From Candidatus Woesearchaeota archaeon (GTDB taxonomy: Archaea > Nanobdellota > Nanobdellia > Pacearchaeales > GW2011-AR1): a stretch of DNA of 32,000 nt. Positions within the stretch are counted from its first letter, which is position 1, and each line of letters begins with the position of its first letter. The notes under the pieces are model-generated. The model made no database searches. It was given only the letters and a program-made list of their open reading frames with translations, and was not told the origin of the DNA. A program made the translations under genes and the position numbers. Location: NCBI GenBank assembly GCA_964497435.1, contig CAZCCD010000002.1:84602-116601 (forward strand), given 5' to 3'. Shown here piece after piece: positions 3,263-32,000 of this stretch.

Positions 3263-3372
3263 TTTTCACCAGTTTTATAATTTCGTTAATCTTCAAAACA
3301 AAATTAGTTTATAAAGATTTGTATGAACTCCAACACAACAACATTAAAATATGCTGTTTTTTTATCCAGAAA

Positions 3373-12193: not shown

Positions 12194-13657
12194 ATGTTTT
12201 GCAATAAAATTTATAAACCTCTTTCGTTTAATTATAGTATGAGAGTTCTTAAAAAAGGAGAGGATTTGATGGTGGAGTTAAAAGAGAATTTTCAAAGAGA
12301 TTTATTTACAAATTTAATTAATAAGTATGGAAGATTTTTTCTATCTAAGAAACTTAACAAATCCCCTTCAATTTTATACCTTTATAAGAACAATTATGTA
12401 AAATCAATTCCCTTAAGAGTTATCAATAAAGCAGTTAGACTCTCTACATTTTCTAAAGATAATCTAAAAATAAACACAAAAAGAATGTTTTCGGCAAAGG
12501 ATTTTATACATAAAATAATGTACGATGGAGCAAAAATAAAACATCAAAAGATGAAAGAAGATTTATCTATAAAAATAGGAGCCTTCAGCCTTCTGGAAGA
12601 AAATAATGGTTTATTTATTCTGGATATGCTAAATTGGTTGAATAAAAATTCTTGGATTGAAAAATTACAAAGACAAAAAGGATTAGTAAATAATGCAAAA
12701 ATAGACAAAATATCAAAAAAACATATAGTCATTTCTTATACTGCTTATAATAGAAGAACAAAAAAAGGTGAGCATTATATTATTTCTTTGCCAAGAGAGT
12801 TGCAATTAAATACTGATTTTTGTTATTTTTTAGGTCTTCTTTATGGTGATGGTTTGAATGGAGCAAGAGTAGGGATAGTAAATAAAGATAAAAGCCTCAT
12901 CAATTATACTGCGAATTTTCTAAAAACATTTTTTAAAAATAATAAGATTAAATCTCAAGTTAATATATACAATCCAAAAATAAATCCTAATGAGTTTCGT
13001 CAATGGTTAAAATCTATTTCTGATGAATTTGGGGTTTATTATAATGATAAAGCAAGAGGTTCGTACGTTTTTAATATTTTTATAACTAATAAAATTTTAA
13101 GAAGAGCAATTGATGATTTATTAGAAAATTTGGAATATTTATTTGAAAAATTAGAATCTAAACAAAAGGGTGCATTTCTGGCAGGTTTATTTGATGCTGA
13201 AGGGAATGTTAATAAATTAGATAAAAATTTAAGATTCAGCCAAAAAATCGAAACTAAAGTTAAAGTAATACAAAATATATTATCTAAAGAAGGTTACCAT
13301 CAGAGATATGATGGGAGTAACATTTTGATCGGTTACAGAAACGAATATAAGGAGGATTTAAAACTTTTTGAAATACAGGTCCTTCCATTTTTAAAACATT
13401 CAGAAAAATCAATTCAAGCTAAAGAATTATTATCAGGATATTTTGTAATGGAAAGTTACAAACAATTGCTTAAAATTATCTCTACAAATTCGAACATTTC
13501 TCAAAAACAAATTGCAAAATTAGCAAACAAAGTAAAATGTCATAGGGAATTAAATGCCTTAGCAGATGCTTATTTAGTTAAAAAAACAGGAAAGCTCGGC
13601 GAAAGCTTTAAATACACAATTACAGATGAAGGTTTAAGATATTTGGAGGAAAAATAA
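12194..13657 (+). CDS. Free-standing double-motif LAGLIDADG homing-endonuclease-like protein with N-terminal HTH-like and C-terminal winged-helix-like extensions
   Basis: Motif 1 is FLGLLYGDGLNG and motif 2 is FLAGLFDAEGNV; both keep the acidic residue. The C-terminus ISQKQIAKLANKV...YLVKKTGK...YTITDEGLRYL is wHTH-like. An alternative start at ATG 12269 is preceded by GGAGAGG. Confidence 0.75.
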   Translation: MFCNKIYKPLSFNYSMRVLKKGEDLMVELKENFQRDLFTNLINKYGRFFLSKKLNKSPSILYLYKNNYVKSIPLRVINKAVRLSTFSKDNLKINTKRMFSAKDFIHKIMYDGAKIKHQKMKEDLSIKIGAFSLLEENNGLFILDMLNWLNKNSWIEKLQRQKGLVNNAKIDKISKKHIVISYTAYNRRTKKGEHYIISLPRELQLNTDFCYFLGLLYGDGLNGARVGIVNKDKSLINYTANFLKTFFKNNKIKSQVNIYNPKINPNEFRQWLKSISDEFGVYYNDKARGSYVFNIFITNKILRRAIDDLLENLEYLFEKLESKQKGAFLAGLFDAEGNVNKLDKNLRFSQKIETKVKVIQNILSKEGYHQRYDGSNILIGYRNEYKEDLKLFEIQVLPFLKHSEKSIQAKELLSGYFVMESYKQLLKIISTNSNISQKQIAKLANKVKCHRELNALADAYLVKKTGKLGESFKYTITDEGLRYLEEK

Positions 13658-14797: not shown

Positions 14798-14912
14798 GAG
14801 AGACAGCACCGTAGTTTCGCAGCTTGTCGGCCACTAACACAAACGGCGTAGGAAGCTTATCTTCTGAGATCGGAACGGGATCAGGAGTTTCCAACCTACT
14901 ATGGCCGTCTCC
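14798..14912 (-). rRNA. rrf: 5S ribosomal RNA, not linked to 16S/23S in this window
   Basis: Reverse complement reads GGAGACGGCCAUAGUAGGUUGGAAACUCCUGAUCCCGUUCCGAUCUCAGAAGAUAAGCUUCCUACGCC...GGUGCUGUCUCUC. The terminal helix GGAGACGGC/GCUGUCUCU closes it, the loop C/helix III consensus is recognisable, and a T5 run follows. Confidence 0.85.
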
Positions 14913-15175: not shown

Positions 15176-16201
15176 ATGAGATTTTTATTATCCATAGATT
15201 CTAAAAAATTCTTATTCATTTTTTTGAAGAAAAAATACGGATGCAATTCTTATAATAGTCTTTCAGTTCGATTAAAAATTTCCTTTAGAACGTTACAAAA
15301 TTGGATGTACGATAAATCAAGGTATATTCCAGAAAAGATAATTCCAGAAGAGATTAAATCAAAATTAAACATTTTAGATAAACAAAATGATAATTGGGGG
15401 GCATCTAAGGGGGGTAAAAGAGTCTATAAAATACTTGTTCAAAAGTATGGCATCTCTGAAATAAGAAGAAGACAATCCAAAGGGGGTAAAAGAGCTACAC
15501 AATTAAAGATAAATTCAGAGCCCAAAATAAACATGGAGATAATTCATGACCCAATATTTCTGGAATTTTATGGGGCACTATTAGGAGATGGTTGGCTAAG
15601 CCAATTAAAAAATAAAAACAAGATAATAAGAATTATCGGCCTTTGTGGCCATATTCAATTAGACAGAGAATATTTATTCTACTGGAAAAAAAATTTAAGC
15701 AAGATGTTTCTTAGAACCCCTTATATTAAAGATATTCCGAAAGACAATGGAATGCAACTTACTTTTGGTCATTTTCAATTATTCAAATTTTTGACAGAAT
15801 ACCTAAATTTTCCAATAGGTAAAAAAGAAAAGTTATATTTAGTCTCAGATTTAGAAAAATTAGGTTTTGAGAAATTAAAGTATGTTATTCGGGGTATTTT
15901 TGATACAGATGGATGCTTTTATCTTGATAAGACCCCTGTTGGAAGACCTTATCCTGGAATAGTTATAACGATGAAAGAACCTATTTTAATAAGACAGATA
16001 TACTCTATTTTAATAAAGAAAGGTTTTAAGGTATATCACTATAAATCTGAAAAGATAGAAAGGTTATTTTTAAAAGGCACCAAACAATTAAGAAAATGGA
16101 TTAATGAAATAGGATCCTCAAATCCCTCTAAGTTTAATCGCATGATTAAATATGCCCTTGTAGCTCAGCCGGGATTAGAGCGGCGCACTCCTAATGCGTA
16201 G
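15176..16201 (+). CDS. Free-standing double-motif LAGLIDADG homing-endonuclease-like protein; the last 48 nt overlap tRNA-Arg
   Basis: Motif 1 is FYGALLGDGWLS and motif 2 is VIRGIFDTDGCFYL. The N-terminal HTH-like segment is paralogous to that of 12194-13657. The C-terminal residues ALVAQPGLERRTPNA are read from the tRNA sequence. Confidence 0.75.
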   Translation: MRFLLSIDSKKFLFIFLKKKYGCNSYNSLSVRLKISFRTLQNWMYDKSRYIPEKIIPEEIKSKLNILDKQNDNWGASKGGKRVYKILVQKYGISEIRRRQSKGGKRATQLKINSEPKINMEIIHDPIFLEFYGALLGDGWLSQLKNKNKIIRIIGLCGHIQLDREYLFYWKKNLSKMFLRTPYIKDIPKDNGMQLTFGHFQLFKFLTEYLNFPIGKKEKLYLVSDLEKLGFEKLKYVIRGIFDTDGCFYLDKTPVGRPYPGIVITMKEPILIRQIYSILIKKGFKVYHYKSEKIERLFLKGTKQLRKWINEIGSSNPSKFNRMIKYALVAQPGLERRTPNA

Positions 16202-16229
16202 GTCCACGGTTCAAATCCGTGCAAGGGCA
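16154..16229 (+). tRNA. tRNA-Arg (anticodon CCT), no intron
   Basis: GCCCTTG-TA-GCTC-AGCCGGGATTA-GAGC-G-GCGCA-CTCCTAA-TGCGT-AGGTC-CACGG-TTCAAAT-CCGTG-CAAGGGC-A folds as a complete cloverleaf. Confidence 0.9.
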
Positions 16230-16293
16230 TTTTTATGAAATTTTTTAAACTCAAAACATTTAAAAAACTATCAAAATTACATTCAACAATGAG

Positions 16294-16381
16294 GCGTGGA
16301 TAGTTCAGTGGTAGAATCTCTGGCTTCCAAGATTTAATTTGAAGAAACCAGATGACTCGGGTTCGAATCCCGATCCGCGCA
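16294..16381 (+). tRNA. tRNA-Gly (anticodon TCC) with a 17-nt intron at the canonical 37/38 site
   Basis: Acceptor GCGTGGA/TCCGCGC. Anticodon stem TCTGG/CCAGA, with loop CTTCCAA after removing intron 16330-16346. T-arm TCGGG-TTCGAAT-CCCGA. Confidence 0.9.
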
Positions 16382-19669: not shown

Positions 19670-21175
19670 ATGGGAAAAAATAAGCCTTTATCTAAAATAG
19701 TTTTTAAAAATACCTTTTATAATTTTACATCAAGAATTATATCTAAAATTTTAGGATTAATATTTGTGGTTGTTCTTGCAAGAGCACTTCAACCAGAATT
19801 GTTTGGATTGTACAATATTGTTTTTTCTGTAGTATTTATTTTTCTTACATTTAGTGATTTAGGAATTAATACAGCTCTTATAAAGTATGTTGCTTCTAAT
19901 CTCAACAAAAAAGAAATAGCAGCTTCTTATGTTTCTTATTTATTTAAACTAAAGGTATATTTATCCTTAGGTTTTTCTGCTTTGTTAATAATTTTAGCAA
20001 AGCCTCTAGCAGACTTAGTTTTTAAAAAACCAGAGTTATTTTCTTTGTTTTTATTAACTTCTTTGTATATTTTATTAGCGTCTTTAATTGATTTTTTCTC
20101 TTCGTTTTTCTACCCATTCAATGAGATAAAATATGTCCCGATACAAGAATCCGTCTTTCAAGTCATCAGGATTTTGGTTGTCTTTTCTTTCTTATTCTTA
20201 ATTTCAAAAACCCTAATAAATGTTTTCTTTGCGTTAATAATTACTAACATCTTTATGTTGGCTTTTGTTTTTTTCATTGTTAGAAAAAAATATTTTTTTC
20301 TTTTATCTTTTAAATCATTCTTAAATAAAAAAGAAAAGAAAAAAGTTATTTCTTATACTATTTATTTAACAATAGCAAATCTTTCCGCAATATTCTTTAC
20401 CTATATTGATGTAATAATGTTAGGTATATTCCTAGATGCTAGCTATGTTGGTTTTTACAAAGCAGCACAGTCTTTAGTAACGACTGTTTCAGGATTAATG
20501 GCAATCACTTCTATTCTTTTTCCGATTTTTTCACAACTAGATGCTAAAAGATCTGGGGATGCTTTTAGAAAAGTTTTTAGGTATTCTGCAATATTATCCT
20601 TTCCAGCTTCTTTTGGATTGGCTTTAATTGCTAAACCTTTTATAAATGTGCTTTATGGAACAGAGTATTTACCTTCTACATTGCCATTATTTGCTTTATC
20701 CTTTCTTATTTTAGCTCCAACAGCAAGTTTATTCCCTGTTTTTTTTAGCGCTAAAGAAAAACCAGAATGGCCAGCAAAAATGATGATAATCGCAAGTGTC
20801 TTAAACTGTGTTTTAAATTTCATTTTAATAAAAACTCTTTTAAATATTAGTCCTCTTTACGCAACTCTTGGGGCAGCAATTGCAACTCTTGCTAGCAATT
20901 TCTTTTTTTATTTAAGCCTTGTGATTATTGCAAAAAAAGAATTTAAATTATTCTTAGAACCATCTTCTATTTACAAACCACTTATCGCTAGTTTAGTTAT
21001 GGTTGTTTTCTTAATATCTTTTAATATTGTTGTGGGTCTAACCTGGCCAATGGCAATATTTGAAGTTATATTTGGCGCTATAGTTTATTTTATTATCTTA
21101 TTTTTTATAAATGGCATAAAAAAATCAGATTTTGTGTTATTTAAAAATCTTTTAGGATTTAATCCTGGCAATTAA
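19670..21175 (+). CDS. Polysaccharide/oligosaccharide flippase, MOP (Wzx-like) superfamily
   Basis: 501 aa with about 12-14 TM helices and a Wzx-like N-terminus (NTFYNFTSRIISKILGLIFVVVLARALQPELFGLY). Adjacent to the sugar-modification genes. Confidence 0.75.
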   Translation: MGKNKPLSKIVFKNTFYNFTSRIISKILGLIFVVVLARALQPELFGLYNIVFSVVFIFLTFSDLGINTALIKYVASNLNKKEIAASYVSYLFKLKVYLSLGFSALLIILAKPLADLVFKKPELFSLFLLTSLYILLASLIDFFSSFFYPFNEIKYVPIQESVFQVIRILVVFSFLFLISKTLINVFFALIITNIFMLAFVFFIVRKKYFFLLSFKSFLNKKEKKKVISYTIYLTIANLSAIFFTYIDVIMLGIFLDASYVGFYKAAQSLVTTVSGLMAITSILFPIFSQLDAKRSGDAFRKVFRYSAILSFPASFGLALIAKPFINVLYGTEYLPSTLPLFALSFLILAPTASLFPVFFSAKEKPEWPAKMMIIASVLNCVLNFILIKTLLNISPLYATLGAAIATLASNFFFYLSLVIIAKKEFKLFLEPSSIYKPLIASLVMVVFLISFNIVVGLTWPMAIFEVIFGAIVYFIILFFINGIKKSDFVLFKNLLGFNPGN

Positions 21176-22214
21176 TTACAGCCCTAATTATCTTTCCTTC
21201 TTCTAGATCGTGAATTGCTTGGTTTATTCTAGTTAAAGAATAGGTTCTTGTTATTAGTTTTTCAAGTTTTAATTTACCATCTATATACATCTTGGCATAA
21301 AAAGGTATGTCTCTATCGGGATTTGTGGAACCCCCCCATGAACCCCTTATCCTTTTACCCTTTATTAAATCAAAAGGATAAATTTTTATTTTTTCATTTC
21401 TACCAATATTCCCAGCGATTATTGTTAATCCTCCATCCCTTCCGTCTTTGCCTTCTTTTATAACACTAAATGCTTCTTCCATTGCTTTTTTTGAGCCAGC
21501 GGTTTCTATAGAATAATTAACACCAACCCCATTAGTCAAATCACTTATTTTTTTATAAACATCTCCTTCGGCAGCATTTATTGTATGGGTAGCCCCTATT
21601 TCTCTTGCAAAATCAAGTTTGCTTTTGTTTATATCGACGGCAATTAAAGGATTAATGCTAATAGCAGCTGCATACAGCAATGCACTAGATCCAATACCTC
21701 CTATACCAAATATTGCAATAGAATCTCCAAGGGCAGGATTAATATCATTTTTCACTATTCCTCCTCCAGTAGGAATTGCACAACCCAAGAGAGAAACAAC
21801 AGGACCAGAAATGATTCTTGGAATTTTTGTTAGTCTGTTCTCAGAAACCACTGCATAATTTAAAAAAGTCGCTGCAGATCCAGAGTTTATTTTTTCTCCG
21901 TCTTTATTGTATTGTAAGTCTTTGGTATCCAAACCACTTCCCTTTATCCATGAAACAACAACATAGTCCCCACCCCCTACTTTAGTGACCGTCTCATGAG
22001 TTCTTTGAACTATAGCCGAGGCCTCATGTCCTAATGTGTGTGGTAAATATCTATCCGGACCATTTAAGGCTCTTACCTCATTTATTTGGCTGTGGCACAA
22101 ACCAGAATAAAGTACCTTAACTAAAACCTCCCCCATTCTCAAATCCGGAATTTCTATTTCTTCTATAGAAAGAGGTTTATTACTTTCACGTAATATTGCA
22201 GCTAATGTTTTCAT
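21159..22214 (-). CDS. Zinc-dependent medium-chain alcohol dehydrogenase/reductase family protein
   Basis: GLCHSQ...GHEASAIV zinc-site motifs and Rossmann IFGIGGIGS. The ATG at 22214 (MKTLAAIL) lies 2 nt after the upstream stop; the ORF track extends to 22232. Confidence 0.8.
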   Translation of the reverse strand: MKTLAAILRESNKPLSIEEIEIPDLRMGEVLVKVLYSGLCHSQINEVRALNGPDRYLPHTLGHEASAIVQRTHETVTKVGGGDYVVVSWIKGSGLDTKDLQYNKDGEKINSGSAATFLNYAVVSENRLTKIPRIISGPVVSLLGCAIPTGGGIVKNDINPALGDSIAIFGIGGIGSSALLYAAAISINPLIAVDINKSKLDFAREIGATHTINAAEGDVYKKISDLTNGVGVNYSIETAGSKKAMEEAFSVIKEGKDGRDGGLTIIAGNIGRNEKIKIYPFDLIKGKRIRGSWGGSTNPDRDIPFYAKMYIDGKLKLEKLITRTYSLTRINQAIHDLEEGKIIRAVINCQD

Positions 22215-22216
22215 TT

Positions 22217-22843
22217 TTAGGTTGTAAACCAATGATAATCCCCATCATAGCCAACTTCTTCGAAAAGACTTTTCCATTGATCAACCGAGTAAACAGTTTT
22301 AATAGTTGGTGCCCATGCAAGAAGCCTTTCCTTTTCTCTTTCATTATTAAATGCATCCACATTAACAAAATAGTTTCCTCTTCCTACCCGCATAATTTCT
22401 TGTAAAGCTACTTTAGCTCTCTCTGGGGTCAAGAAATGTATGGTATTAAATGCAGCTACAAAATCAAAAGAATTATCTTCGAAGTCTAGTCTATCAGCAC
22501 TTCCAATTAAGAGAAAAGGCTTAATTTCTTCAGGAGCTTTTGAAATAGCATATTCAGATACGTCAATGCCACGAACAGCCATATTGGGATATAGCTGGAC
22601 TAAATCGTAGAGAAAGAATCCCTTTGCACATCCAACATCTAAGACACTGCTATTGGGTTTTAAATCATATCTCTTTACCACTTCTTCAGCAATAGGTTTC
22701 CATCTACCATCATAATTGTAACCTCCATAACCTTGGTCTCTTGTGCCATCAAAATAATCATGTCCAAATGCCGGATCCATATTACGAACAGGACCATCAT
22801 ACATTTTATGTTGTGCTCTCAAAAGATTATATAATTCCCCCAT
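22217..22843 (-). CDS. Class I SAM-dependent methyltransferase
   Basis: Motif I VLDVGCAKGFF, post-I acidic residue, and motif II/III region FDFVAAFNTIHF. Confidence 0.8.
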   Translation of the reverse strand: MGELYNLLRAQHKMYDGPVRNMDPAFGHDYFDGTRDQGYGGYNYDGRWKPIAEEVVKRYDLKPNSSVLDVGCAKGFFLYDLVQLYPNMAVRGIDVSEYAISKAPEEIKPFLLIGSADRLDFEDNSFDFVAAFNTIHFLTPERAKVALQEIMRVGRGNYFVNVDAFNNEREKERLLAWAPTIKTVYSVDQWKSLFEEVGYDGDYHWFTT

Positions 22844-22999
22844 ATCAAATCTATCTGGACTTCCTTTATATCCTTTTTTATAGTGAATAATATATCTTAT
22901 TTTATCTTTCTTCTAACCCCTTTTTGTCATAGAATAAAAATAAAATGGTTGTTAGTCCATCAAGTCTTTCAATATTTACTCTTTCTTTGATTGAAGAAC

Positions 23000-24844
23000 T
23001 TAAGCCACTATTAATTCTTCTAATTTTTTTCCTTCTGCAAAAGATATTAGTTCAGGGAATTCTTCAGCACGCCTTCTCCAATAAGCTGACTCATCAAGTA
23101 GTTGATAAAATCTTCTCTTATAAAATCCAGCATTTTTGTTATCACCACTAATTGTATAACCTCTTACAAGAGCTGCACACATAGAAGCATCATAAGGATA
23201 AGCTTGATATATTGAATCAAACCATCTTATCATTTTGTCAACTCTTCCATCAGAAGTAAAGTTGTAGTTTTGGAAAAAATTAGTCATTAGGTTAAAGGTA
23301 AACCATATTTCTTTAATTTGTTCTTGACTTGGAACAGAATCTTCTGGTATATTAAACACATCTTTTCCAGTTCTTATTTGTTCTCTATTTTTGTCAAATT
23401 GATATCCAAATTCCCCTCTAGCAGCAGCCTTGCCAGGGTTTAATGTTCTGTCATAACTGTCAACATCTACTCTTTCGTCACCCAAAGCTTGGAAAGCTGA
23501 GAACATTTCAGTTCCTTTAAGCGGTTGACAGATATAAAAGCTTGACCAATCCCATTTCAGTTCATTAGCGAAATTGTAAGTATCCATCATTTGTGCAAAA
23601 GTTTCATTCGGAAAGCCTACAATAAAATTTGCACTTACAAAAACTTCAGGATATCTTTTGAATAATTCGCTTTTTTCTCTTAGTTTTGGTTTTGTTGTTG
23701 GTTTCTTTATATCTTTAAGTATTTTATCATTCCCTGATTCGATTCCTATTTTAAAGGCCTTCATTCCTGATTTTACCATTGAGTACATTATTTCATCTGT
23801 AATTGCAGCCGCAATTAACCCATTATTACATATCCACTCAATCTCAGGTACTTCTGTTGATAATCCATTAAAAAGCTCAACAGCCCTACTAGGATTCCAC
23901 AGAAGATCATCATCTAACCAATCTATCTGTTTTATTCCTTTTTCTTTAACAAGAAATTTTATTTCATCTATAACACTTCTAACAGACCTTTGCCTGACTC
24001 CAAAGCCATTAAAGTCTCTTACTGTGCAAAAAGTACATCTAGCTCTACAACCTCGATTACTTAAAACCGTGGCAAAACTCTTATCTTCGCCGTTATAGCG
24101 CGAAAATGCAGCAAGTGAACCGTATCTATGATAGTTTTCTACAGGTATTAAAGAATAAAACTCTCTAATATCTTCGTCAATTGGAACTTCTTCTGTATTT
24201 TCCCCTAACTCATAAACTTTATCTTCCAGAGAAATGGCAATACCATTTGGCACAGAGATAACTTTCCCAGAAAAACAACTTTCCATAAAAGATTTGAACT
24301 GTAATTCTGCCTCTTTTCTGAAAACAATATCTGCATGACCTTCTTTTAGAATTTCTTTATAATCATAAGTTGCTTGCACACCTCCAGCCAAAAGAGGTAT
24401 CTTTGGATAGTTTTCTCTAACATACCTTGCAACATCTACAAAGCAAGATTTAGTTGCACTGAACATGTAAGTAATTCCTACGTGAGCTTCTTTACACTGC
24501 TCTATTGTTCTGGAAACAATTTCTTGCCAGTGTTTGTAAGAAAATTCTTCATCATGAGCATGACGAAGTAGTTCATAATTAAGATCAATTATTTTTATAT
24601 CTATTGAAGGATTTACCTTTTTTGCTGTAGCAGCTAGGTATAAAAGACCAACCGGAGGATAAGCATAGTACCCTTTATTTCTTGCTACTAAAACATCAAA
24701 ATTTTCTTCCGGTACTAGCTGGGGGTTTATAAGTACAAGGTCTGTAGGACTTCTAACAGGCAGCTTGTCTAGAAAGGATTGAAATACCTCACTACTATTA
24801 ACGCCATTCTTTTTCACCAATAAATTTTGAAGATTGTTTTGCAT
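23000..24844 (-). CDS. B12-binding-domain radical SAM enzyme (class B, methyltransferase-like)
   Basis: N-terminal cobalamin-binding-like Rossmann region (YPPVGLLYLAATAKK...). Radical SAM cluster motif CRARCTFC (CxxxCxxC). Has a ~200-aa C-terminal extension. Confidence 0.85.
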   Translation of the reverse strand: MQNNLQNLLVKKNGVNSSEVFQSFLDKLPVRSPTDLVLINPQLVPEENFDVLVARNKGYYAYPPVGLLYLAATAKKVNPSIDIKIIDLNYELLRHAHDEEFSYKHWQEIVSRTIEQCKEAHVGITYMFSATKSCFVDVARYVRENYPKIPLLAGGVQATYDYKEILKEGHADIVFRKEAELQFKSFMESCFSGKVISVPNGIAISLEDKVYELGENTEEVPIDEDIREFYSLIPVENYHRYGSLAAFSRYNGEDKSFATVLSNRGCRARCTFCTVRDFNGFGVRQRSVRSVIDEIKFLVKEKGIKQIDWLDDDLLWNPSRAVELFNGLSTEVPEIEWICNNGLIAAAITDEIMYSMVKSGMKAFKIGIESGNDKILKDIKKPTTKPKLREKSELFKRYPEVFVSANFIVGFPNETFAQMMDTYNFANELKWDWSSFYICQPLKGTEMFSAFQALGDERVDVDSYDRTLNPGKAAARGEFGYQFDKNREQIRTGKDVFNIPEDSVPSQEQIKEIWFTFNLMTNFFQNYNFTSDGRVDKMIRWFDSIYQAYPYDASMCAALVRGYTISGDNKNAGFYKRRFYQLLDESAYWRRRAEEFPELISFAEGKKLEELIVA

Positions 24845-25054
24845 TGGCTTTTTTTAAAAGTAACCTATTTTTTATTAACATCACTGCTAAATAAATCTTT
24901 CTACGATAAAGTAAAAACTTATTTAGTTAACTATAGTTATGATTGAATGAGGATTTAAATAATTATAGTACCAAAACAGAATATGTAAATAAGGTCTTTA
25001 CATTAGATAATTTAGAGAAATATTTCAAGAGGAGTATAATCATTTAGGTAATTA

Positions 25055-26158
25055 CTACTCAAAAAATGTTTTAATTTTATTTATGACATATTCAATTTGC
25101 CATTCTTTTAATCCAGGATATATTGGTAAACTTAAGATTTTCTTTGCTTGGCTTTCTACTACTGGAAAATCTCCTTCTTTATAACCAAAATATTTTGAAG
25201 CTTCTTGCAGATGTATAGGGATTGGATAATGGATTTTGGTTTCAATACCATTTTCTAACAAAAACTTTTGCAATTCGTTCCTTTTTTCAGTCATTATAAC
25301 AAAATTATGGTAAACAGGTTCTTCATACTCTTTATCTACAGGAACCTGAACGACATCTTTTAAAAACCCTCTATAAATTGACGCTATTTCTCTGTGTCTT
25401 TTATTCCATTCTTCAATGTGTTTTAATTTAATATTTGCTATACCTGCTTGAATCCCATCTAGTCTAGAATTATATCCGAAAAATTCACATTCATCTCTAT
25501 TTTTTAGTCCGTGATTATGTAGCTTTTTTAACTTTTCGTAAAGTTCTTTATTATTAGTTGAAATAAAACCCCCATCTCCCTGAACGTGTAAATTTTTTAA
25601 AGGATGCAATGAAAAACATCCCACAATTCCAAAAGATCCGACTCTTTTATCTTTGTACTTAGCTCCTATAGCTTGAGCAGCGTCTTCTATTACATATAAT
25701 TTGTATTTTCTTGCTATTTCAAATAATGGATCTATTTCTACAGGTCTGCCTGTTAAATGTATAGGCATTATTGCTTTCGTTTTTTGAGTTATTACATCTT
25801 CTATTTTTGATGTATCTATATTATAATCCTCTTTTACATCAACAAAAACAGGTTTAGCTCCTGCTGCAACTATTGATCCTACACTGGCGATAAAAGAGTT
25901 TGGAGCTGTAATAACCTCATCTCCTTGTCCGATACCTAAAGCCTCCATCACAAGAAATAATGCATCCGTACAATTTCCTACAGCAATAACATAATCTGTT
26001 TCACAAAACTTTGCTATATTTTTTTCAAATTCCTCTACCTCTAGAGTATTAACATAAGCTCCTTGGCTAGAAAGCTCATCAATTTTATTTATTATTTCCT
26101 CTTTTAATTCCTTGTATTCCAAGCCTAAATTTACAAATCTTACTTTAATTTCATTCAT
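25055..26158 (-). CDS. DegT/DnrJ/EryC1/StrS-family PLP-dependent sugar aminotransferase (paralogue 1)
   Basis: Family-typical layout with the PLP lysine context GCFSLHPLKNL and ...VIEDAAQAIGA.... Confidence 0.9.
   Translation of the reverse strand: MNEIKVRFVNLGLEYKELKEEIINKIDELSSQGAYVNTLEVEEFEKNIAKFCETDYVIAVGNCTDALFLVMEALGIGQGDEVITAPNSFIASVGSIVAAGAKPVFVDVKEDYNIDTSKIEDVITQKTKAIMPIHLTGRPVEIDPLFEIARKYKLYVIEDAAQAIGAKYKDKRVGSFGIVGCFSLHPLKNLHVQGDGGFISTNNKELYEKLKKLHNHGLKNRDECEFFGYNSRLDGIQAGIANIKLKHIEEWNKRHREIASIYRGFLKDVVQVPVDKEYEEPVYHNFVIMTEKRNELQKFLLENGIETKIHYPIPIHLQEASKYFGYKEGDFPVVESQAKKILSLPIYPGLKEWQIEYVINKIKTFFE
25773..25866 (-). repeat. 94-nt tract identical to 26878-26971
   Basis: Read base by base: GCTTTCGTTTTTTGAGTTATTACATCTTCTATTTTTGATGTATCTATATTATAATCCTCTTTTACATCAACAAAAACAGGTTTAGCTCCTGCTG occurs in both aminotransferase genes, and the flanks diverge immediately. 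Confidence 0.9.
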
Positions 26159-27305
26159 TGTAAAATTCCCTTATTTTTTCTACAACATAATTTCTTTGTT
26201 CACTAGTTATAAACTCGTGAACAGGTAAAGATATAATCTCTTTACAAATCATTTCGGTAATTGGAAAATCCCCTTCTTTATAACCTAATGCTTTTGAAGG
26301 CTCTTGTAGATGCATTGGAATTGGGTAATGGATTTTTGCATCTATTCCTTTACTTCGTAGAAATTTAATTAACTCACCCCTTCTTTCAGCCCTTATAACA
26401 TAAATATGAAAAACATGTTTGATGTTAGGGTTTCTATAAGGTATTTTTATTTGGGGTATTTTTCTTAGTTCTTCATCAAAAAATTTAGCGTTCGCTATTC
26501 TTGCATTTGTGATCCTATCTATTCTTTTTAGTAAGTGATTGGCGACTATTGCTTGTAAACTGTCTAGCCTAGAATTATATCCAAACAAGATCTGTTCATC
26601 CCTATTTTTTAATCCATGATTTCTTAATAAAGCAATTTTATCATGTAGCTCTTTATTATTTGTTATCAAATACCCACCATCCCCCCAAATATTTAAGTTT
26701 TTTAGTGGATGCATCGAGAAACACCCAATATCTCCTAGAGTACCAGGAGGTGAGCCATAATAAAGAGCATTAATCGTGTGACAAGCATCTTCTATTATAT
26801 ATAAATTATGTTTTTTTGCTATAGAGATTATTTTTTTCATATCACAACAATATCCACTCCAATGAACAGGAACAACAGCTTTCGTTTTTTGAGTTATTAC
26901 ATCTTCTATTTTTGATGTATCTATATTATAATCCTCTTTTACATCAACAAAAACAGGTTTAGCTCCTGCTGTTGCTATAGCTCCAACAGTTGCAAAAAAA
27001 GTATAAGGGGTTGTAATAACTTCATCACCCTCTTTAATCCCAATTGCTTTTAATGCTAAGAATATAGCATCTGTTCCACTGCCAACTCCTAAACAATACT
27101 TAGCCCCTGTTAAACCTTCTATGTTTTCTTCAAATTCCAAAACACTTTCACCAAGAGTGTAATCACAATTTTTAATTAACTTTTCTATCTCTTTAAATAT
27201 CTCTTTATAATCTGAAAATTGTTCCTTCAAGTAATTATGGTTGACTTTATGTTTTCCTGCTTCTTCATACTGTTTAACTAAATAATCTTTTTTGATTTCC
27301 GTCAT
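26151..27305 (-). CDS. DegT/DnrJ/EryC1/StrS-family PLP-dependent sugar aminotransferase/dehydratase (paralogue 2)
   Basis: GCFSMHPLKNL lysine context and IIEDACHTINA. Has an 8-nt overlap with paralogue 1. Confidence 0.9.
   Translation of the reverse strand: MTEIKKDYLVKQYEEAGKHKVNHNYLKEQFSDYKEIFKEIEKLIKNCDYTLGESVLEFEENIEGLTGAKYCLGVGSGTDAIFLALKAIGIKEGDEVITTPYTFFATVGAIATAGAKPVFVDVKEDYNIDTSKIEDVITQKTKAVVPVHWSGYCCDMKKIISIAKKHNLYIIEDACHTINALYYGSPPGTLGDIGCFSMHPLKNLNIWGDGGYLITNNKELHDKIALLRNHGLKNRDEQILFGYNSRLDSLQAIVANHLLKRIDRITNARIANAKFFDEELRKIPQIKIPYRNPNIKHVFHIYVIRAERRGELIKFLRSKGIDAKIHYPIPMHLQEPSKALGYKEGDFPITEMICKEIISLPVHEFITSEQRNYVVEKIREFYNE
26878..26971 (-). repeat. Partner of the 25773-25866 identical tract
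   Basis: See 25773-25866. Confidence 0.9.
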
Positions 27306-28306
27306 ATTTTATGAATATACTCTAAAGGCTGTTTTTTTAATTCTTCCCAAGATTCATTAATCCAATCTATCACTTCCTTAATTCCGGACTTTAAATCAAT
27401 TGTTGGTTTCCAATCTAGCTCTTTTTTAGCTTTATCTATGTTTAAGGAGTACATATCATCCTGACCAAAATTTTCTTTTATCATTTCCACTGATTTTTCA
27501 AAATCATATCCCATTATATTACAAATCATATCAATCAAATCTCTTATACTTATATTTTCTCTTTCTGGAGCTAAATGATAGGCCTCTCCATTTTTTCCTT
27601 TCTCAATTGCTTTAAGAGTAGCGTCTGAAATATCCCGAATATTAATAAATGACCTAACGGCTTTGCCATCCCCATGCAATTGTATTTTCTTTCCCATTTT
27701 AAGGTATATTATTGTTCTTGGAATTATTCTATAAAGTTGTTGATGTACCCCATAAACGTTTGCAGATCTAGTGCTAACAAAAGGAAATCTATATTTTTTG
27801 AAGAGTGAGAATAAAAATAATTCCCCTGCCAATTTTGAGGCTGCATAAGGAGTACTAGGATAGAAATTATAATTTTCTTTTATATTTTTCTCAGTGCTTC
27901 CATAGACTTCTGGGGTGGACACATTAATGTATCTCTTCAAATACCCCCTGTCTTTGAGGTGATTAGCTATATTAACAATACCAATACAATTTGTTTTAAA
28001 CCATTGTTCAGGCCATTTCCAGCTATTCCTTACCTCTCCTTGGGCAGAATAATTAGCCACTATTTCTGGTTCAAATTTATCAAGAATTTTTTTTATTTCT
28101 TCAATATTTTTATTCACATCTAATTGATAAAATTTGAATCTTTTTGATCTTTCTTTTTTGTATAAATAAGGAAGGAAGATTTTATTATATTCTGGAGACC
28201 TACTAATTCCAATAACTTCTGCATTAGTTTTTTCCAAAACATGATTAACAAAATGCGCCCCTGTAAAAGAATTACTTCCAATAACAGCTACTCTATTAAT
28301 TTCCAT
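27302..28306 (-). CDS. Extended SDR NAD-dependent epimerase/dehydratase (sugar 4,6-dehydratase-like)
   Basis: VIGSNSFTGAHFV Rossmann motif, STPEVYG and YAASK (YxxxK). Has a 4-nt overlap with the downstream aminotransferase gene. Confidence 0.85.
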   Translation of the reverse strand: MEINRVAVIGSNSFTGAHFVNHVLEKTNAEVIGISRSPEYNKIFLPYLYKKERSKRFKFYQLDVNKNIEEIKKILDKFEPEIVANYSAQGEVRNSWKWPEQWFKTNCIGIVNIANHLKDRGYLKRYINVSTPEVYGSTEKNIKENYNFYPSTPYAASKLAGELFLFSLFKKYRFPFVSTRSANVYGVHQQLYRIIPRTIIYLKMGKKIQLHGDGKAVRSFINIRDISDATLKAIEKGKNGEAYHLAPERENISIRDLIDMICNIMGYDFEKSVEMIKENFGQDDMYSLNIDKAKKELDWKPTIDLKSGIKEVIDWINESWEELKKQPLEYIHKI

Positions 28307-28307
28307 T

Positions 28308-29294
28308 TTACTTTAGATTTATTTCTTTCATTCTCTTAATATTATGGTATATTGGATTATTAAAAGGATCTTTAATAAGGCCTTTATTAAAAGCTTTAAC
28401 TAAACTTTGGATTGCATCATTAATTCCATAATGACATTCAAAACCCAAGACCTTCTTCATTTTATCTGTATTTATGTGATAAGATCTAAGGTCGTCTGTC
28501 GGAACAACTTCTATTTCAATTGAGTCATCTTTCAGTGTTTTTTTTACCTCTTCAGCTATTTCTATCATAGTATAATTTTTGTAAGAGACATTAAATGCTT
28601 GTTTGTGGATTTTTTTAGCTGGTTCTTCTAGCATTAACTCATAAAATCTAACCATATCTTTTATGTTTAAAACAGGCCTCATTTGACTCCCTCCAAACAC
28701 TATTATCTTTTTATTGGTTAGGGCATGAGATGTTAAAGTGTTTACAGAAAGGTCTAACCTCAATCTTGGAGAATATCCACATAATGTTGCAGGCCTTACG
28801 AAAACATACTCAAAACCAGGATCTTGTTTTAGAAGTTTCTTTTCACATTTTACTTTATATTTTGCATAATCTGTTATTGGCTCTGCTTTTGTTTCTTCAG
28901 TAACTTCTACATTGATTGGTTTTATCCCATACTGCGCTGTTGAACTAGCAACTATTAACCTTTTTATTCCATTGACAGTGCAAGAGTCAATTACATTTTG
29001 AAAAGCCCTGTAATTTATTGACTTTCCTAATTTTGTATTTAAATCAAAACTAGGGTCATTAGATATGCAAGCTAAGTGTATAAATGCATCATGATTTTTT
29101 GATGCGTCTATAAGTTTTTCCCTGTTCCTTATATCCCCTTTTATTTCTTTGAGATTTTGATGGGGTTTTAAAACATTTCCATAAATGTACAAATCATAGA
29201 CTGTGACTTCGTATCCTTTATCTAATAAACTTGGGACTAATAAACTTCCAAGGTATCCTGCACCACCAGTTATAAATACTTTTTTGAATAGCAC
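28308..29294 (-). CDS. Extended SDR NAD-dependent epimerase/dehydratase/reductase
   Basis: ITGGAGYLGS Rossmann motif and YAKYK (YxxxK). GTG start at 29294. Confidence 0.85.
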   Translation of the reverse strand: MLFKKVFITGGAGYLGSLLVPSLLDKGYEVTVYDLYIYGNVLKPHQNLKEIKGDIRNREKLIDASKNHDAFIHLACISNDPSFDLNTKLGKSINYRAFQNVIDSCTVNGIKRLIVASSTAQYGIKPINVEVTEETKAEPITDYAKYKVKCEKKLLKQDPGFEYVFVRPATLCGYSPRLRLDLSVNTLTSHALTNKKIIVFGGSQMRPVLNIKDMVRFYELMLEEPAKKIHKQAFNVSYKNYTMIEIAEEVKKTLKDDSIEIEVVPTDDLRSYHINTDKMKKVLGFECHYGINDAIQSLVKAFNKGLIKDPFNNPIYHNIKRMKEINLK

Positions 29295-29394
29295 AAATTT
29301 TGAAAAGGGTATTATTTTATAAGCTTATCTATGAATTAATACATATACTATTTATAACATAAAAATATAAAAATGTTGGAAGGACAAACCTAAT

Positions 29395-30360
29395 ATGGAT
29401 GAAAAAACTCTTGTGGATTTATTTAGAGATTTGTTGTATATCAGAATGGTTGAGGAGAGAGTTTGTGATCTTTATTCTGAACAAGAAATGAGGTGCCCGG
29501 TTCATATTTCAATAGGGCAAGAAGCAACAGCCGTAGGATTGTCGAAAGCATTAAATAAAGAAGACCTTGTTTTTAGTAATCATAGATGTCATGGACATTA
29601 CCTTGCTAAAGGCGGCAATTTAAAGAAATTTTTTTCAGAACTTTATGGAAAAGCTACTGGTTGCTCTGGTGGAAGGGGTGGATCAATGCATTTAATTGAT
29701 ACTGATGTTGGTTTTTCCGCATCAACTCCCATAGTTTCGGGCACAATTCCTATTGCAGTAGGTTCAGCTCTGGCATTTTCAATTAAAAATGAAAATAAAA
29801 TTGCAGTTAGCTTTTTCGGCGAGGCTGCGATAGAAGAAGGATCTTTTCATGAAAGTATTAATTTTGCTAAATTAATGAATCTACCAATAATTTTTTTCTG
29901 TGAGAATAATCTTTATTCTGTTTATACTCCTTTAGAAGAGAGACAACCTAAAAAAAGGATTTCTAACATTGCTAGAGCAAACGGTTTAATTACCTATGAA
30001 ATTGATGGAAATGATGTTGTTCAAGTTTATAAAGTATGTAAAGAAGCTGTTGAAAAAATTAGAAATGATGAAGGGCCTATCTTTATTGAAGCATCAACTT
30101 ATAGGTGGAGAGAACATTGTGGACCAAATTATGATAATCATCTTGGTTATAGAAGTATAGAAGAATTTTTTTATTGGAAAGATAAAGACCCTTTAAAGAA
30201 AATGAAAGACTGCCTACTTAAATCGGGAACTATAACGGAAAATGAAATAAGAAAAATGGAACAAGAAATAAATATTTTGATAAGTGAGGCTGTAGAATTC
30301 GCAAAAGAAAGCCCATACCCTAACAAAGATGAGCTAAATAAATTTGTATATGCTGATTAA
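29395..30360 (+). CDS. ThDP-dependent dehydrogenase E1 component, alpha subunit
   Basis: E1-alpha family features: HISIGQEA, HRCHGHYLAKGG, GGRGGSMHL and the ThDP motif GEAAIEEGSFHESINFA...FFCENN. Confidence 0.85.
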   Translation: MDEKTLVDLFRDLLYIRMVEERVCDLYSEQEMRCPVHISIGQEATAVGLSKALNKEDLVFSNHRCHGHYLAKGGNLKKFFSELYGKATGCSGGRGGSMHLIDTDVGFSASTPIVSGTIPIAVGSALAFSIKNENKIAVSFFGEAAIEEGSFHESINFAKLMNLPIIFFCENNLYSVYTPLEERQPKKRISNIARANGLITYEIDGNDVVQVYKVCKEAVEKIRNDEGPIFIEASTYRWREHCGPNYDNHLGYRSIEEFFYWKDKDPLKKMKDCLLKSGTITENEIRKMEQEINILISEAVEFAKESPYPNKDELNKFVYAD

Positions 30361-30361
30361 A

Positions 30362-31414
30362 ATGACAAGACTGATAAGATTTACAGAGGCAATAAGAGAA
30401 GCAATAGATCAATCAATGAAAATTGATTCAAGAGTTTTTGTAATTGGTGAAGGTGTTCCAGATCCTAAAGGAATATTTGGAACAACCCTTGGTTTAAGAG
30501 AGAAATATGGTAAAGAAAGAGTCTTAGATATGCCTCTTTCTGAAAATGCTTTAACTGGAGTTTGTATTGGTGCAGCAACACAGGGATTGAGACCAATTTT
30601 GACTCATCAAAGAATTGATTTCGCATTACTTTCAATGGATCAAATAATAAATAACGCCGCCAAGTGGCATTATATGTTTAATGGTGTTTATAAAATTCCT
30701 TTAGTCATAAAAATGACAATAGGTATGGGATGGGGTCAAGGAGCGCAACACTCTCAAAACTTGCAAGCACTTTTTTCCCACATCCCTGGATTAAAAGTCG
30801 TCATGCCATCAACAGCTTATGATGCTAAAGGTTTGATGATAGCCTCTATTAAAGACAATAATCCTGTAATTTATATTGAACATAGATGGCTTCACAATAC
30901 TCTTGGAGATGTTCCTGAAGAACCCTATGAAGTTCCTCTCGGTAAGGTAAAGATAGTTAGGGAAGGAAAAGATTTAACGATAGTTTCAACTTCCTATATG
31001 ACTCTTGAAGCACTAAAAGCTGCAAATTTACTTAAAGAACAAGGTGTTTTTATAGAAGTCATTGACGTTAGAACATTAAAACCATTGGATATAGAAACGG
31101 TTATTTCTTCTGTTAAGAAAACAGGACACTTACTTGCAATAGACTCTGGCCATAGTTTTGGAGGATATGCCTCTGAGATTATCTCACAGGTTTCTGAGTT
31201 AGCTTTTACAAATTTGAAATCTGGTCCAAAAAAAATATCCCCACCAGATATTCCTACTCCATCAAGCCCGGGATTAACTAAATTTTATTATCCCAGATAC
31301 CCAGACATAATAAGGAAAATATCTTTAATTCTTGGAAAAGAGTTAATTGTTCCAGATATTATGGAGAATATTCCTTTAGATGTACCAGACTCTACATTTA
31401 CAGGACCATTTTAA
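30362..31414 (+). CDS. ThDP-dependent dehydrogenase E1 component, beta subunit (transketolase-like Pyr and C-terminal domains)
   Basis: IGEGVPDPKGIFGTT...RVLDMPLSENALTGVCIGAA...IEHRWL...VIDVRTLKPLD. The ATG at 30362 lies 1 nt after the alpha-subunit stop. Confidence 0.85.
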   Translation: MTRLIRFTEAIREAIDQSMKIDSRVFVIGEGVPDPKGIFGTTLGLREKYGKERVLDMPLSENALTGVCIGAATQGLRPILTHQRIDFALLSMDQIINNAAKWHYMFNGVYKIPLVIKMTIGMGWGQGAQHSQNLQALFSHIPGLKVVMPSTAYDAKGLMIASIKDNNPVIYIEHRWLHNTLGDVPEEPYEVPLGKVKIVREGKDLTIVSTSYMTLEALKAANLLKEQGVFIEVIDVRTLKPLDIETVISSVKKTGHLLAIDSGHSFGGYASEIISQVSELAFTNLKSGPKKISPPDIPTPSSPGLTKFYYPRYPDIIRKISLILGKELIVPDIMENIPLDVPDSTFTGPF

Positions 31415-31415
31415 A

Positions 31416-31943
31416 ATGCCAAAACTTTTTTTACCAGAAGATTTTAAGTCGGAAAAAGTTCTTGATATCAATGAATGTGCTAGAGTTGTAGATCATTTAA
31501 TAAAAGAAGGAAAAATTGTAGGTTTATGTCACGGTCGTTTTGACTTACTCCACCCCGGTCATGTTAAACATTTTCAATCATCAAAAAAATTATGTGATAT
31601 TCTAGTTGTTTCTATAACATCTGACAGATACGCCGAATCTAGAAAAAAAAGATCTAATTTATATGATCAACATTTAAGAGCGTACATAGTTTCTAATATA
31701 AGATTTGTGGATTATGTAACAATTTCTGATTTTGATTTAGCTGTAGAAGTTATCAAAATGTTAAAACCATCATTGTACATAAAAGGCCCGGATTATACAA
31801 AAACAAGAGATAATGTTGAAAAAGAAAGATTAGAACGTGAGATAGAATCAATAGAAAGTGTTGGGGGAAGAATGGTATATACTAATGACACAACCTTTTC
31901 AACAACAGATATATTGAGGGTTATAAAAAATGGACCAGTTTAA
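31416..31943 (+). CDS. Cytidylyltransferase-fold sugar-phosphate nucleotidyltransferase, RfaE domain II-like
   Basis: GRFDLLHPGHVKHF (HxGH), ...IKGPDY... and a C-terminal STTDIL, as in heptose-1-phosphate adenylyltransferase domains. The ATG at 31416 lies 1 nt after the E1-beta stop. Confidence 0.7.
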   Translation: MPKLFLPEDFKSEKVLDINECARVVDHLIKEGKIVGLCHGRFDLLHPGHVKHFQSSKKLCDILVVSITSDRYAESRKKRSNLYDQHLRAYIVSNIRFVDYVTISDFDLAVEVIKMLKPSLYIKGPDYTKTRDNVEKERLEREIESIESVGGRMVYTNDTTFSTTDILRVIKNGPV

Positions 31944-32000
31944 AAAAGTACTTACTATCTTAGACAGAGACGGTACCATAATAAAAAATGATGATTTCTT
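31930..32000 (+). CDS. HAD-IIIA phosphatase, GmhB/histidinol-phosphatase-like; N-terminal fragment that continues beyond the window
   Basis: My translation gives MDQFKKVLTILDRDGTIIKNDDF.... LDRDGTI is HAD motif I as seen in GmhB-type enzymes. Overlaps the upstream gene by 14 nt. Confidence 0.55.
   Translation, partial: MDQFKKVLTILDRDGTIIKNDDF

Follow-up and report, generated by a model that had tools for sequence, protein, structure and literature searches.

Gene content of a sugar locus behind secD

The last 12.3 kb (19670-32000) of a 32,000-nucleotide stretch of archaeal DNA, here called the window (Candidatus Woesearchaeota archaeon; assembly GCA_964497435.1, contig CAZCCD010000002.1, positions 84,602 to 116,601 of the forward strand), hold twelve genes arranged in two divergent, tightly packed operons (Table 1). 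The set combines a flippase, a Zn-dependent alcohol dehydrogenase (Zn-ADH), a class I methyltransferase and a B12-binding radical S-adenosylmethionine (SAM) enzyme with two DegT aminotransferases (AT1 and AT2), two extended short-chain dehydrogenases/reductases (SDR1 and SDR2), both subunits of an E1-type enzyme dependent on thiamine diphosphate (ThDP), a nucleotidyltransferase (NT) and a HAD phosphatase. These genes and families, as well as the divergent layout around the intergenic region at 29295-29394, had been named in an original prediction made from the letters of the DNA, and open reading frames (ORFs), strands and profile matches agree with it.

Table 1. Features of the sugar locus in the window and number of bacterial class A loci (defined below) that hold an orthologue
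Feature	Position	Strand	Supporting match or motif	Class A loci
Wzx-like MOP flippase	19670-21175	+	Pfam Polysacc_synt 9.9e-42, Polysacc_synt_3 4.3e-30	0/24
Zn-ADH, MDR family	21159-22214 (longer ORF bound 22232)	-	ADH_N + ADH_zinc_N	20/24
Class I SAM methyltransferase	22217-22843	-	Methyltransf_25/11/31	22/24
B12-binding radical SAM enzyme, 614 aa	23000-24844	-	B12-binding PF02310 2.2e-10 + Radical_SAM PF04055 2.3e-18	
DegT aminotransferase AT1	25055-26158	-	Pfam DegT 5.6e-110	6/24
DegT aminotransferase AT2	26151-27305	-	Pfam DegT 1.7e-105	7/24
SDR1, RmlB-like extended SDR	27302-28306	-	closest PDB entries are dTDP-glucose 4,6-dehydratases	19/24
SDR2, extended SDR	28308-29294	-	most like PDB 6vo6	11/24
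Divergent intergenic (putative promoter) region, 100 nt	29295-29394		AT-rich, TATA-like elements	
ThDP-dependent E1 alpha	29395-30360	+	E1_dh 7.9e-72	14/24
ThDP-dependent E1 beta	30362-31414	+	Transket_pyr + Transketolase_C	16/24
Stand-alone cytidylyltransferase-fold NT, RfaE domain II-like, 175 aa	31416-31943	+	CTP_transf_like 6.4e-13	10/24
HAD-IIIA phosphatase, GmhB-like, 5' end (first 23 codons)	31930-32000	+	LDRDGT (DxDGT) motif	0/24

According to the coordinates, the flippase and Zn-ADH genes overlap tail-to-tail by 17 nt and 2 nt separate Zn-ADH from the methyltransferase gene. AT1 and AT2 overlap by 8 nt, AT2 and SDR1 by 4 nt and NT and the HAD gene by 14 nt, and gaps of 1 nt lie between SDR1 and SDR2, E1 alpha and E1 beta, and E1 beta and NT. 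The predicted packing, in which nearly all junctions overlap or span 1-2 nt, is therefore seen at most junctions but breaks down around the radical SAM gene, the sole gene of the minus-strand operon with long spacers on both sides (22844-22999, 156 nt; 24845-25054, 210 nt). A search of both spacers for a riboswitch or other RNA gave no Rfam match at E<=1 and no repeat; they may represent internal promoters or insertion scars. The ATG start of Zn-ADH was placed at 22214 following the gene call on a short contig (L005), and the 175-aa gene call for NT recurs on three short contigs.

A short contig from this organism (L003, 1.5 kb) extends 1.4 kb past the end of the window. It carries the complete HAD protein of 193 aa (L003:750-1331), directly followed by a convergent gene for a SIS-domain (GmhA-like) protein. 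The latter, visible as a 73-aa C-terminal fragment (L003:1280-1501, minus strand) whose relatives carry Pfam SIS and SIS_2, is the GmhA candidate that the original prediction had proposed to look for beyond position 32000. An exact 35-nt pattern search and a search with the HAD protein in JGI metagenomes returned no match, and the SIS fragment, used as a protein query, did not retrieve the full-length SIS protein.

Conservation of the gene set across bacterial phyla

The radical SAM protein has 759 relatives at E<=1e-20, among which the best non-self matches are 67-68% identical and every named match is bacterial. Scanning one genome per species with this protein delivered 45 loci. Twenty-four of these, all bacterial and distributed over eight phyla, encode a radical SAM orthologue whose identity to the archaeal protein is 50% or higher (range 53-68%) and are referred to as class A. 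Window proteins were compared with the loci by tblastn and ORF clustering, and orthologues were counted within 10 kb of the radical SAM gene (Table 1, last column). Their identities range from 32 to 68%, and mostly they form one co-linear operon on a single strand, for example in L008 (Elusimicrobia), L015, L019 (Nitrospina) and L053. The orders SDR2-E1 alpha-E1 beta-SDR1 or E1 alpha-E1 beta-AT-AT-SDR1 recur across phyla. The hosts comprise Cyanobacteria (Microcoleus, Prochlorococcus), Elusimicrobia, Omnitrophota, Planctomycetota, Nitrospinota, Alphaproteobacteria, Verrucomicrobiota and Lindowbacteria, and carriers of cultured type in the scan include Microcoleus sp. BROC3 and Tistlia consotensis USBA 355. 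A search for plasmid-borne copies in PLSDB found none.

Thus, an uncharacterised cassette is conserved in at least eight bacterial phyla and is not an archaeal invention. The combination of enzymes had been considered unusual for a small archaeal genome; rather than being peculiar to this archaeon, it is a widespread bacterial cassette. In turn, the co-linearity of the same set in 24 bacterial loci shows that the grouping goes beyond chance and that the genes form one pathway, as had been predicted; the converse, that they belong to several unrelated pathways, is not what the bacterial loci display. Some components have to be set apart. The flippase was counted as part of the set in the original prediction, but its complete absence from the bacterial loci assigns it to the archaeal island rather than to the conserved cassette. 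The HAD phosphatase, likewise without a counterpart in the 24 loci, does not belong to the bacterial cassette either. Moreover, the aminotransferase pair is an optional module, and AT2 orthologues in the bacterial cassettes always adjoin AT1.

The bacterial cassettes also add information on sugar activation and export. In these cassettes NT is the N-terminal domain of NT-PfkB fusions, to which the archaeal NT is 32-41% identical. The best family matches of the fusion are HldE and RfaE domains I and II, and a GmhA-like SIS gene adjoins it. NUDIX hydrolases are present in several bacterial cassettes, and several end with a small family 2 glycosyltransferase (GT2) and a GT-C/PMT_2 protein, which suggests delivery of the sugar via a polyprenyl-phosphate route.

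Besides class A, the scan revealed cassettes with a more distant radical SAM protein, 32-39% identical to that of the window, in Magnetococcales, Omnitrophota, Planctomycetes and one archaeal metagenome-assembled genome (MAG) (class B; L030-L047, e.g. L031:4000-12000). They keep the methyltransferase, the NT-kinase and the GmhA-like SIS gene, carry a split transketolase-like pair in place of E1 alpha/beta and additionally encode two or three radical SAM-SPASM enzymes, a WbuC cupin and a TIGR04372 glycosyltransferase. The class B cassette also appears uncharacterised. Since it exchanges E1 alpha/beta for another split pair, a two-subunit ThDP enzyme is integral to the system.

Enzyme functions and a predicted pathway

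The activation genes point to a heptose. For NT, which contains an HxGH motif (GHVKH), the top NCBIfam match is rfaE_dom_II (88.9 bits versus a cutoff of 181.5). The HAD protein exceeds the cutoff of HAD-SF-IIIA (47.2 versus 44.6 bits) but stays below those of the GmhB equivalogs (PRK08942, 62.5 versus 178; a second GmhB model, 43.4 versus 149.6). A SIS orthologue from a bacterial cassette (L019:1492-2103) matches gmhA with 106.9 bits versus a cutoff of 209. Together with the bacterial kinase fusion and the likeness of SDR2 to 6vo6 described below, these GmhA-, GmhB- and RfaE-II-like genes make a heptose, which had been suggested as a possible substrate, the best candidate. As the activation-gene assignments stay below equivalog cutoffs, this substrate is proposed here and not assigned.

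Of the two SDRs, SDR2 gives the clearer indication. Among solved structures it is closest to 6vo6 (133.9 bits over residues 3-307), with the next match far behind at 80.7 bits; the PDB label of 6vo6 reads 'putative sugar-nucleotide epimerase/dehydratease'. We take 6vo6 to be the GDP-heptose C4-dehydrogenase Cj1427 of Campylobacter. Function and chemistry of Cj1427 have been described (PMC10680097). In bacterial cassettes SDR2 mostly sits directly upstream of E1 alpha, and we propose that it catalyses the step forming a 4-keto sugar. The window also holds, at 3319-4488 (+), a gene for an FAD oxidase with L-2-hydroxyglutarate oxidase as best NCBIfam match (250.9 bits, cutoff 299), which is missing at the syntenic position in two related genomes (L054 and L055). 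Because Cj1427-type dehydrogenases make L-2-hydroxyglutarate from 2-oxoglutarate, it is tempting to speculate that the oxidase recycles the by-product of SDR2.

SDR1 resembles dTDP-glucose 4,6-dehydratases (best PDB match 6bi4, 147.5 bits). However, it reaches only 197 bits with TIGR01181 versus a cutoff of 365, and its subfamily carries (S/T)-(P/A)-E in place of the T-D-E triad of RmlB (S-T-P-E in the window) and GSNxFxG in place of GGAGFIG. This motif replacement is kept in 18 orthologues, and a true RmlB encoded in L037 retains TDE. The YxxxK motif is kept, with YxxxR in three orthologues. An assignment of SDR1 as RmlB was rejected on the grounds of the missing triad and the TIGR01181 score. 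In the case of GDP-mannose dehydratase it has been proposed that Glu alone suffices for dehydration. SDR1 may likewise dehydrate via Glu alone, or it may be an epimerase or a reductase. Thus, of the predicted oxidation or dehydration of the sugar, C4 oxidation is suggested by the likeness of SDR2 to 6vo6, and dehydration is left uncertain by the lack of the Thr-Asp-Glu triad in SDR1.

The ThDP pair belongs to the pyruvate dehydrogenase (PDH) E1 type. E1 alpha scores 242 bits with E1_dh and 315 bits with TIGR03182 (cutoff 394), and E1 beta passes the cutoff of a PDH E1-beta subfamily (NF006667, 325.1 versus 321 bits). The ThDP motif G(D/E)x...EEG...ENN and the histidine in YRWxEH are kept in E1 alpha, as is the catalytic (activating) Glu in the DMPxSEN motif of E1 beta. 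No ORF with biotin_lipoyl/2-oxoacid_dh domains or of the E3 type was found in the 32-kb window, and E2/E3 were likewise not found among the recurring families of the cassette. The pair is embedded in a sugar-nucleotide tailoring cluster together with the putative 4-keto-forming SDR2. PDH-E1-like pairs that act as two-carbon branching systems are known, namely AviB1/AviB2 in avilamycin and Pau11/Pau12 in paulomycin biosynthesis (PMC4425429). The similarities comprise the lack of E2/E3, the location inside a sugar cluster and the availability of a 4-keto acceptor and of a reductase for the acetyl branch. In contrast to the archaeal system, to which they are likened by gene context, AviB1/AviB2 and Pau11/Pau12 operate in actinomycete antibiotic pathways on 6-deoxyhexoses or pentoses, possibly after glycosyl transfer. 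The two-carbon branch that had been considered possible hence has a precedent. The YerE-type enzymes, for which ketone acceptors as well as downstream reductases and transaminases have been described (PMC9306805), are more remote: YerE and ErwE, the partners of YerF and ErwF, belong to a different ThDP family, i.e. flavoproteins resembling acetolactate synthase. An erwiniose-like product (a 6,8-dideoxy-octose with a hydroxyethyl branch) was rejected, as the enzyme of erwiniose synthesis is of the YerE type and uses a C5 keto acid (PMC9306805).

Instead of branching the ring, the ThDP pair could lengthen the carbon chain. That is, Zn-ADH would oxidise the C7 alcohol to the aldehyde and E1 would add two carbons by an acyloin condensation as catalysed by DXS or transketolase, yielding a nine-carbon 8-keto sugar, which would then be reduced, aminated and methylated. 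It is established enzymology that ThDP carboligases and transketolases usually act on aldehydes as acceptors, and class B has its split transketolase-like pair in the same position. Zn-ADH, present in 20 of the 24 E1-type cassettes, falls into the primary-alcohol/aldehyde class, with class III and class P ADH as best matches. However, AviB1/AviB2 and Pau11/Pau12, the sole characterised E1-type sugar enzymes, are assigned to branching at a C4 ketone (PMC4425429). Moreover, the E1 genes mostly adjoin those of SDR2 and SDR1, enzymes of ring carbons, and the Zn-ADH gene lies at the far end of the operon. We therefore regard chain extension as unlikely. Zn-ADH itself has the catalytic Zn ligands, and its structural-Zn loop is devoid of the four cysteines. 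Its orthologues share the motifs GxCxSQ, GHE and LGCA. The best NCBIfam matches of Zn-ADH, NDMA-dependent and class III ADH, all remain below cutoff. Its proposed role is that of a side-chain ketoreductase or a primary-alcohol oxidase.

The ThDP pair might also act upstream of activation, building in a transketolase- or DXS-like manner the ketose phosphate that is subsequently activated. This would parallel the lincosamide octose route, and the sugar might then be no ordinary heptose. Another chain length is indeed conceivable when the activation proteins fall below heptose equivalog cutoffs, a DPANN archaeon may have no pentose-phosphate route to sedoheptulose 7-phosphate, and the transketolase-like pair of class B adjoins NT-kinase and SIS genes. 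Yet the cassette is intact in cyanobacteria and proteobacteria, which possess an ordinary transketolase. In addition, the E1 genes are mostly flanked by sugar-nucleotide SDRs rather than by SIS or kinase genes, and the proteins are of the PDH-E1 and not of the transketolase type. These observations render an upstream role quite improbable and leave the addition of two carbons to the activated sugar as the preferred function.

Both DegT proteins (Pfam DegT, 368 and 354 bits) retain the lysine that forms the Schiff base with pyridoxal phosphate (PLP), within the motif S(L/M)HPLKNL. Their closest solved relatives are mostly 3-aminotransferases (QdtB, DesV, WbpE), plus 3uwc. AT1 matches best 7b0d and the 3-aminotransferase QdtB (3frk), and AT2 matches best 3uwc (379.7 bits), presumably a Coxiella aminotransferase. 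The predicted capacity of the archaeon for up to two aminations is thus supported, but the pair occurs in just 6-7 of the 24 bacterial cassettes. The two genes share a 94-nt stretch of 100% identity (25773-25866 versus 26878-26971; encoding AGAKPVFVDVKEDYNIDTSKIEDVITQKTKA), and elsewhere their DNA is moderately similar, with 73-77% identity even in the best-matching segments. This tract looks like the result of a recent gene conversion between the paralogues.

Methylation by both polar and radical chemistry, as originally predicted, agrees with the presence of a class I methyltransferase and a B12-radical SAM enzyme. The methyltransferase is the constant partner of the radical SAM gene and is also found in most loci with distant radical SAM homologues. 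Because it is kept in cassettes that have no aminotransferases, it is probably not an N-methylase. The radical SAM enzyme carries its CxxxCxxC motif at C266/C270/C273, invariant in 15 homologues, and belongs to a family of 600-640 aa with a conserved C-terminal extension. By its domain architecture it is a putative methylase of the class B (cobalamin-dependent) type. The N-terminal B12-binding domain and the radical SAM core with CxxxCxxC are shared with GenK/GenD1 of gentamicin biosynthesis and with Fom3, which acts on cytidylyl-hydroxyethylphosphonate, making a nucleotide-linked or sugar substrate plausible. Unlike these enzymes, it is distant from any named family: the best NCBIfam match, the Sden_1168 P-methyltransferase family, yields 140.9 bits versus a cutoff of 575.

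The latter match, the weak similarity of NT to the cytidylyltransferase domain of Fom1 (5x3d) and the NUDIX hydrolases of several cassettes might suggest a fosfomycin-like phosphonate pathway consisting of a ThDP decarboxylase, an ADH, a cytidylyltransferase and a B12-radical SAM methylase. Similarly, given that E1 beta passes the PDH E1-beta cutoff, the genes might be a chance mosaic in which E1 serves central 2-oxoacid metabolism, the ADH serves fermentation and the sugar genes have functions of their own. Both ideas conflict with a set that is co-linear across eight phyla, with the lack of E2/E3 genes in the window, with a P-methyltransferase score of 141 bits against the required 575 and with the location of two SDRs and two DegT proteins, i.e. 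sugar-nucleotide enzymes, inside the operon. We consider them very improbable. The Fom-like pathway was in addition rejected because the PEP-mutase signature EDKxxxxxNS was not present in six-frame translations of the window and 55 loci.

In light of these data, the region fairly likely represents one cassette for a nucleotide-activated, heavily tailored higher-carbon sugar of a surface glycan. In the order and at the sites that we infer, the SIS protein encoded just past the window would isomerise a ketose of the sedoheptulose-7-phosphate type, a kinase (none visible here; fused to NT in bacteria) would phosphorylate C1, the HAD phosphatase would remove the C7 phosphate and the RfaE-II-like transferase would couple the sugar to a nucleotide. 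SDR2 would then form the 4-keto sugar. Following the precedent of AviB1/AviB2 and Pau11/Pau12, E1 alpha/beta would decarboxylate pyruvate and transfer the two-carbon unit onto a carbonyl of the sugar, and Zn-ADH and SDR1 would adjust oxidation state and stereochemistry by reduction or epimerisation. The two DegT enzymes, as the optional module, would turn keto groups into amines, the B12-radical SAM enzyme would methylate an unactivated carbon and the class I methyltransferase would add an O-methyl group. The most likely product would therefore be a heptose in nucleotide-activated form that has been oxidised at C4, has gained two carbons as an extension or a branch, and bears amino groups as well as C- and O-methyl groups. 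After assembly on a lipid carrier, it would be translocated by the Wzx-like flippase and used for S-layer or lipid glycosylation.

Several points weigh against this scheme. The activation-module proteins all score below NCBIfam equivalog cutoffs, and NT has only weak solved relatives, which differ in specificity (TagD, ECT and the cytidylyltransferase domain of Fom1, 5x3d). Neither a PfkB/GHMP kinase nor a glycosyltransferase is visible in the window (1-32000) or on the 1.5-kb contig; an anomeric sugar kinase may be encoded beyond the end of the window. SDR1 lacks the Asp of the RmlB triad, so that its reaction is uncertain, and the role of SDR2 leans on our equation of 6vo6, a 'putative' epimerase/dehydratase by its PDB label, with Cj1427. 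Moreover, the acceptor of the ThDP enzyme could be a C4 ketone, a C7 aldehyde or a sugar phosphate. For the bacterial origin discussed below, the supporting neighbour-joining tree comes without support values, and the composition of the cluster lends no support to transfer.

The archaeal glycan island and related systems

The gene immediately upstream of the cluster encodes SecD, which is 65-73% identical to proteins from Nanoarchaeota MAGs and has its best named matches in Nanoarchaeota. Two related genomes (L054 and L055) share the gene order S11-S4-S13-DUF655-RpoF-L21e-FtsX-FtsX-ABC...SecF-SecD of the window with 56-84% amino acid identity. After secD (window from 19619 onward; L054:11528-21527; L055:11522-21521), the three genomes carry three unrelated sets of sugar genes. 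In L055 they comprise RmlA/B/D, a Wzx flippase 33% identical to that of the window, NeuB and an accompanying CMP-sugar synthetase. The set of L054 includes a PfkB kinase, a radical SAM-SPASM protein, AMP-binding/inositol-P proteins, a B12-radical SAM gene and PdxA. As the backbone is syntenic and the genes after secD differ, the cluster resides in a hypervariable glycan island.

In the neighbour-joining tree, the radical SAM protein nests in a clade of Elusimicrobia, Omnitrophota, Planctomycetes and cyanobacteria. Given this position among bacterial sequences and the location in a variable island, acquisition from bacteria is the simplest reading, and the cassette probably entered the glycan island of the nanoarchaeon in this direction. 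The GC content of the cluster (0.316) and its GC3 equal those of the rest of the window and the closest bacterial cassettes have GC contents of 0.47-0.54, indicating that any transfer would be old.

Elsewhere in the window, further differences to the two relatives and additional RNA genes were observed. Two free-standing LAGLIDADG-like ORFs (12194-13657 and 15176-16201, both +) are missing from both relatives; the 3' end of the second one runs into a tRNA-Arg(CCT) gene (16153-16230), which makes its stop and extent doubtful. A lone 5S rRNA gene is located at 14798-14912 (-), and for an 88-nt tRNA gene at 16294-16381 (+), which possibly contains an intron, ARAGORN called no normal anticodon. 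Finally, a 238-aa protein composed of repeated helix-turn-helix (HTH) units, with weak matches to HTH regions of transposases and invertases, is encoded at 5737-6453 (-), inserted between two MacB/FtsX permease genes. Between the same genes, L054 has only a 105-aa ORF and L055 lacks an ORF altogether.

The literature searched contains no characterised pathway, archaeal or bacterial, that combines heptose, radical SAM and ThDP chemistry, in agreement with the original prediction, which knew of no characterised archaeal pathway of this composition. All enzyme families are known and each chemical step has a precedent, but the combination is without a characterised counterpart, and the closest systems share one module each. 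The heptose pathway of Campylobacter jejuni resembles the one proposed here in that a nucleotide-activated heptose is oxidised at C4 by an SDR and the 4-keto intermediate is then tailored (PMC10680097). It differs in having no ThDP enzyme, radical SAM methylase or transaminases. Moreover, activation is of the GDP type (GHMP kinase and guanylyltransferase) rather than of the RfaE type, and its cupin epimerases are absent from the window. In septacidin biosynthesis, the L-heptosamine is formed by the 4'-oxidase SepI, the epimerases SepJ/SepA and the aminotransferase SepG, i.e. a heptose likewise undergoes oxidation at C4 before a DegT-type enzyme transaminates it (PMC9978623). In this case, however, the oxidase is of the FAD/GMC type and acts after the heptose has been attached to adenine, and ThDP and radical SAM steps are lacking.

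A module in common with a pathogen concerns sugar activation. The phase I O-antigen region of Coxiella burnetii encodes a phosphoheptose isomerase (CBU0674), two SDRs (CBU0676/CBU0677) and an HldE with reversed domain order (CBU0678) (PMC5843353, PMC13552124, PMC13252051). Full-length phase I lipopolysaccharide (LPS) cannot be made without CBU0678, whose role these studies still describe as unknown (PMC5843353, PMC13252051). The bacterial cassettes contain the same NT-then-PfkB arrangement of a reversed HldE (L019:4357-5889) beside a GmhA-like gene and SDRs, whereas the NT of the window has no fused kinase. Coxiella is not among the radical SAM relatives in the scan of one genome per species (45 loci).

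Taken together, the cassette probably produces an undescribed surface sugar. As a tentative possibility, it may even define a new kind of sugar, in which an activated heptose receives two carbons from ThDP chemistry and one cobalamin-radical methyl group. The result would be a branched or extended C9-C10 sugar, aminated in some lineages, that decorates cell surfaces in members of eight or more bacterial phyla (with Prochlorococcus, Microcoleus and Nitrospina among the carriers) as well as in DPANN archaea. If so, this would be a new and widely distributed route to higher-carbon sugars, joining E1-type ThDP carboligation, cobalamin-radical C-methylation and heptose C4 oxidation. To our knowledge, each of these reactions is known solely from isolated antibiotic pathways. 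In Coxiella, the dependence of the O-antigen on the reversed HldE CBU0678 might have a similar explanation, and the shared module provides a concrete hypothesis for the requirement of this protein in phase I LPS. The archaeon would then add a clear example of a genome-reduced DPANN lineage in which a surface-glycan cassette from bacteria has become fixed. The locus behind secDF behaves like a bacterial O-antigen hot-spot, and surface glycans are likely to help determine how symbionts that live attached to a host make contact with it.

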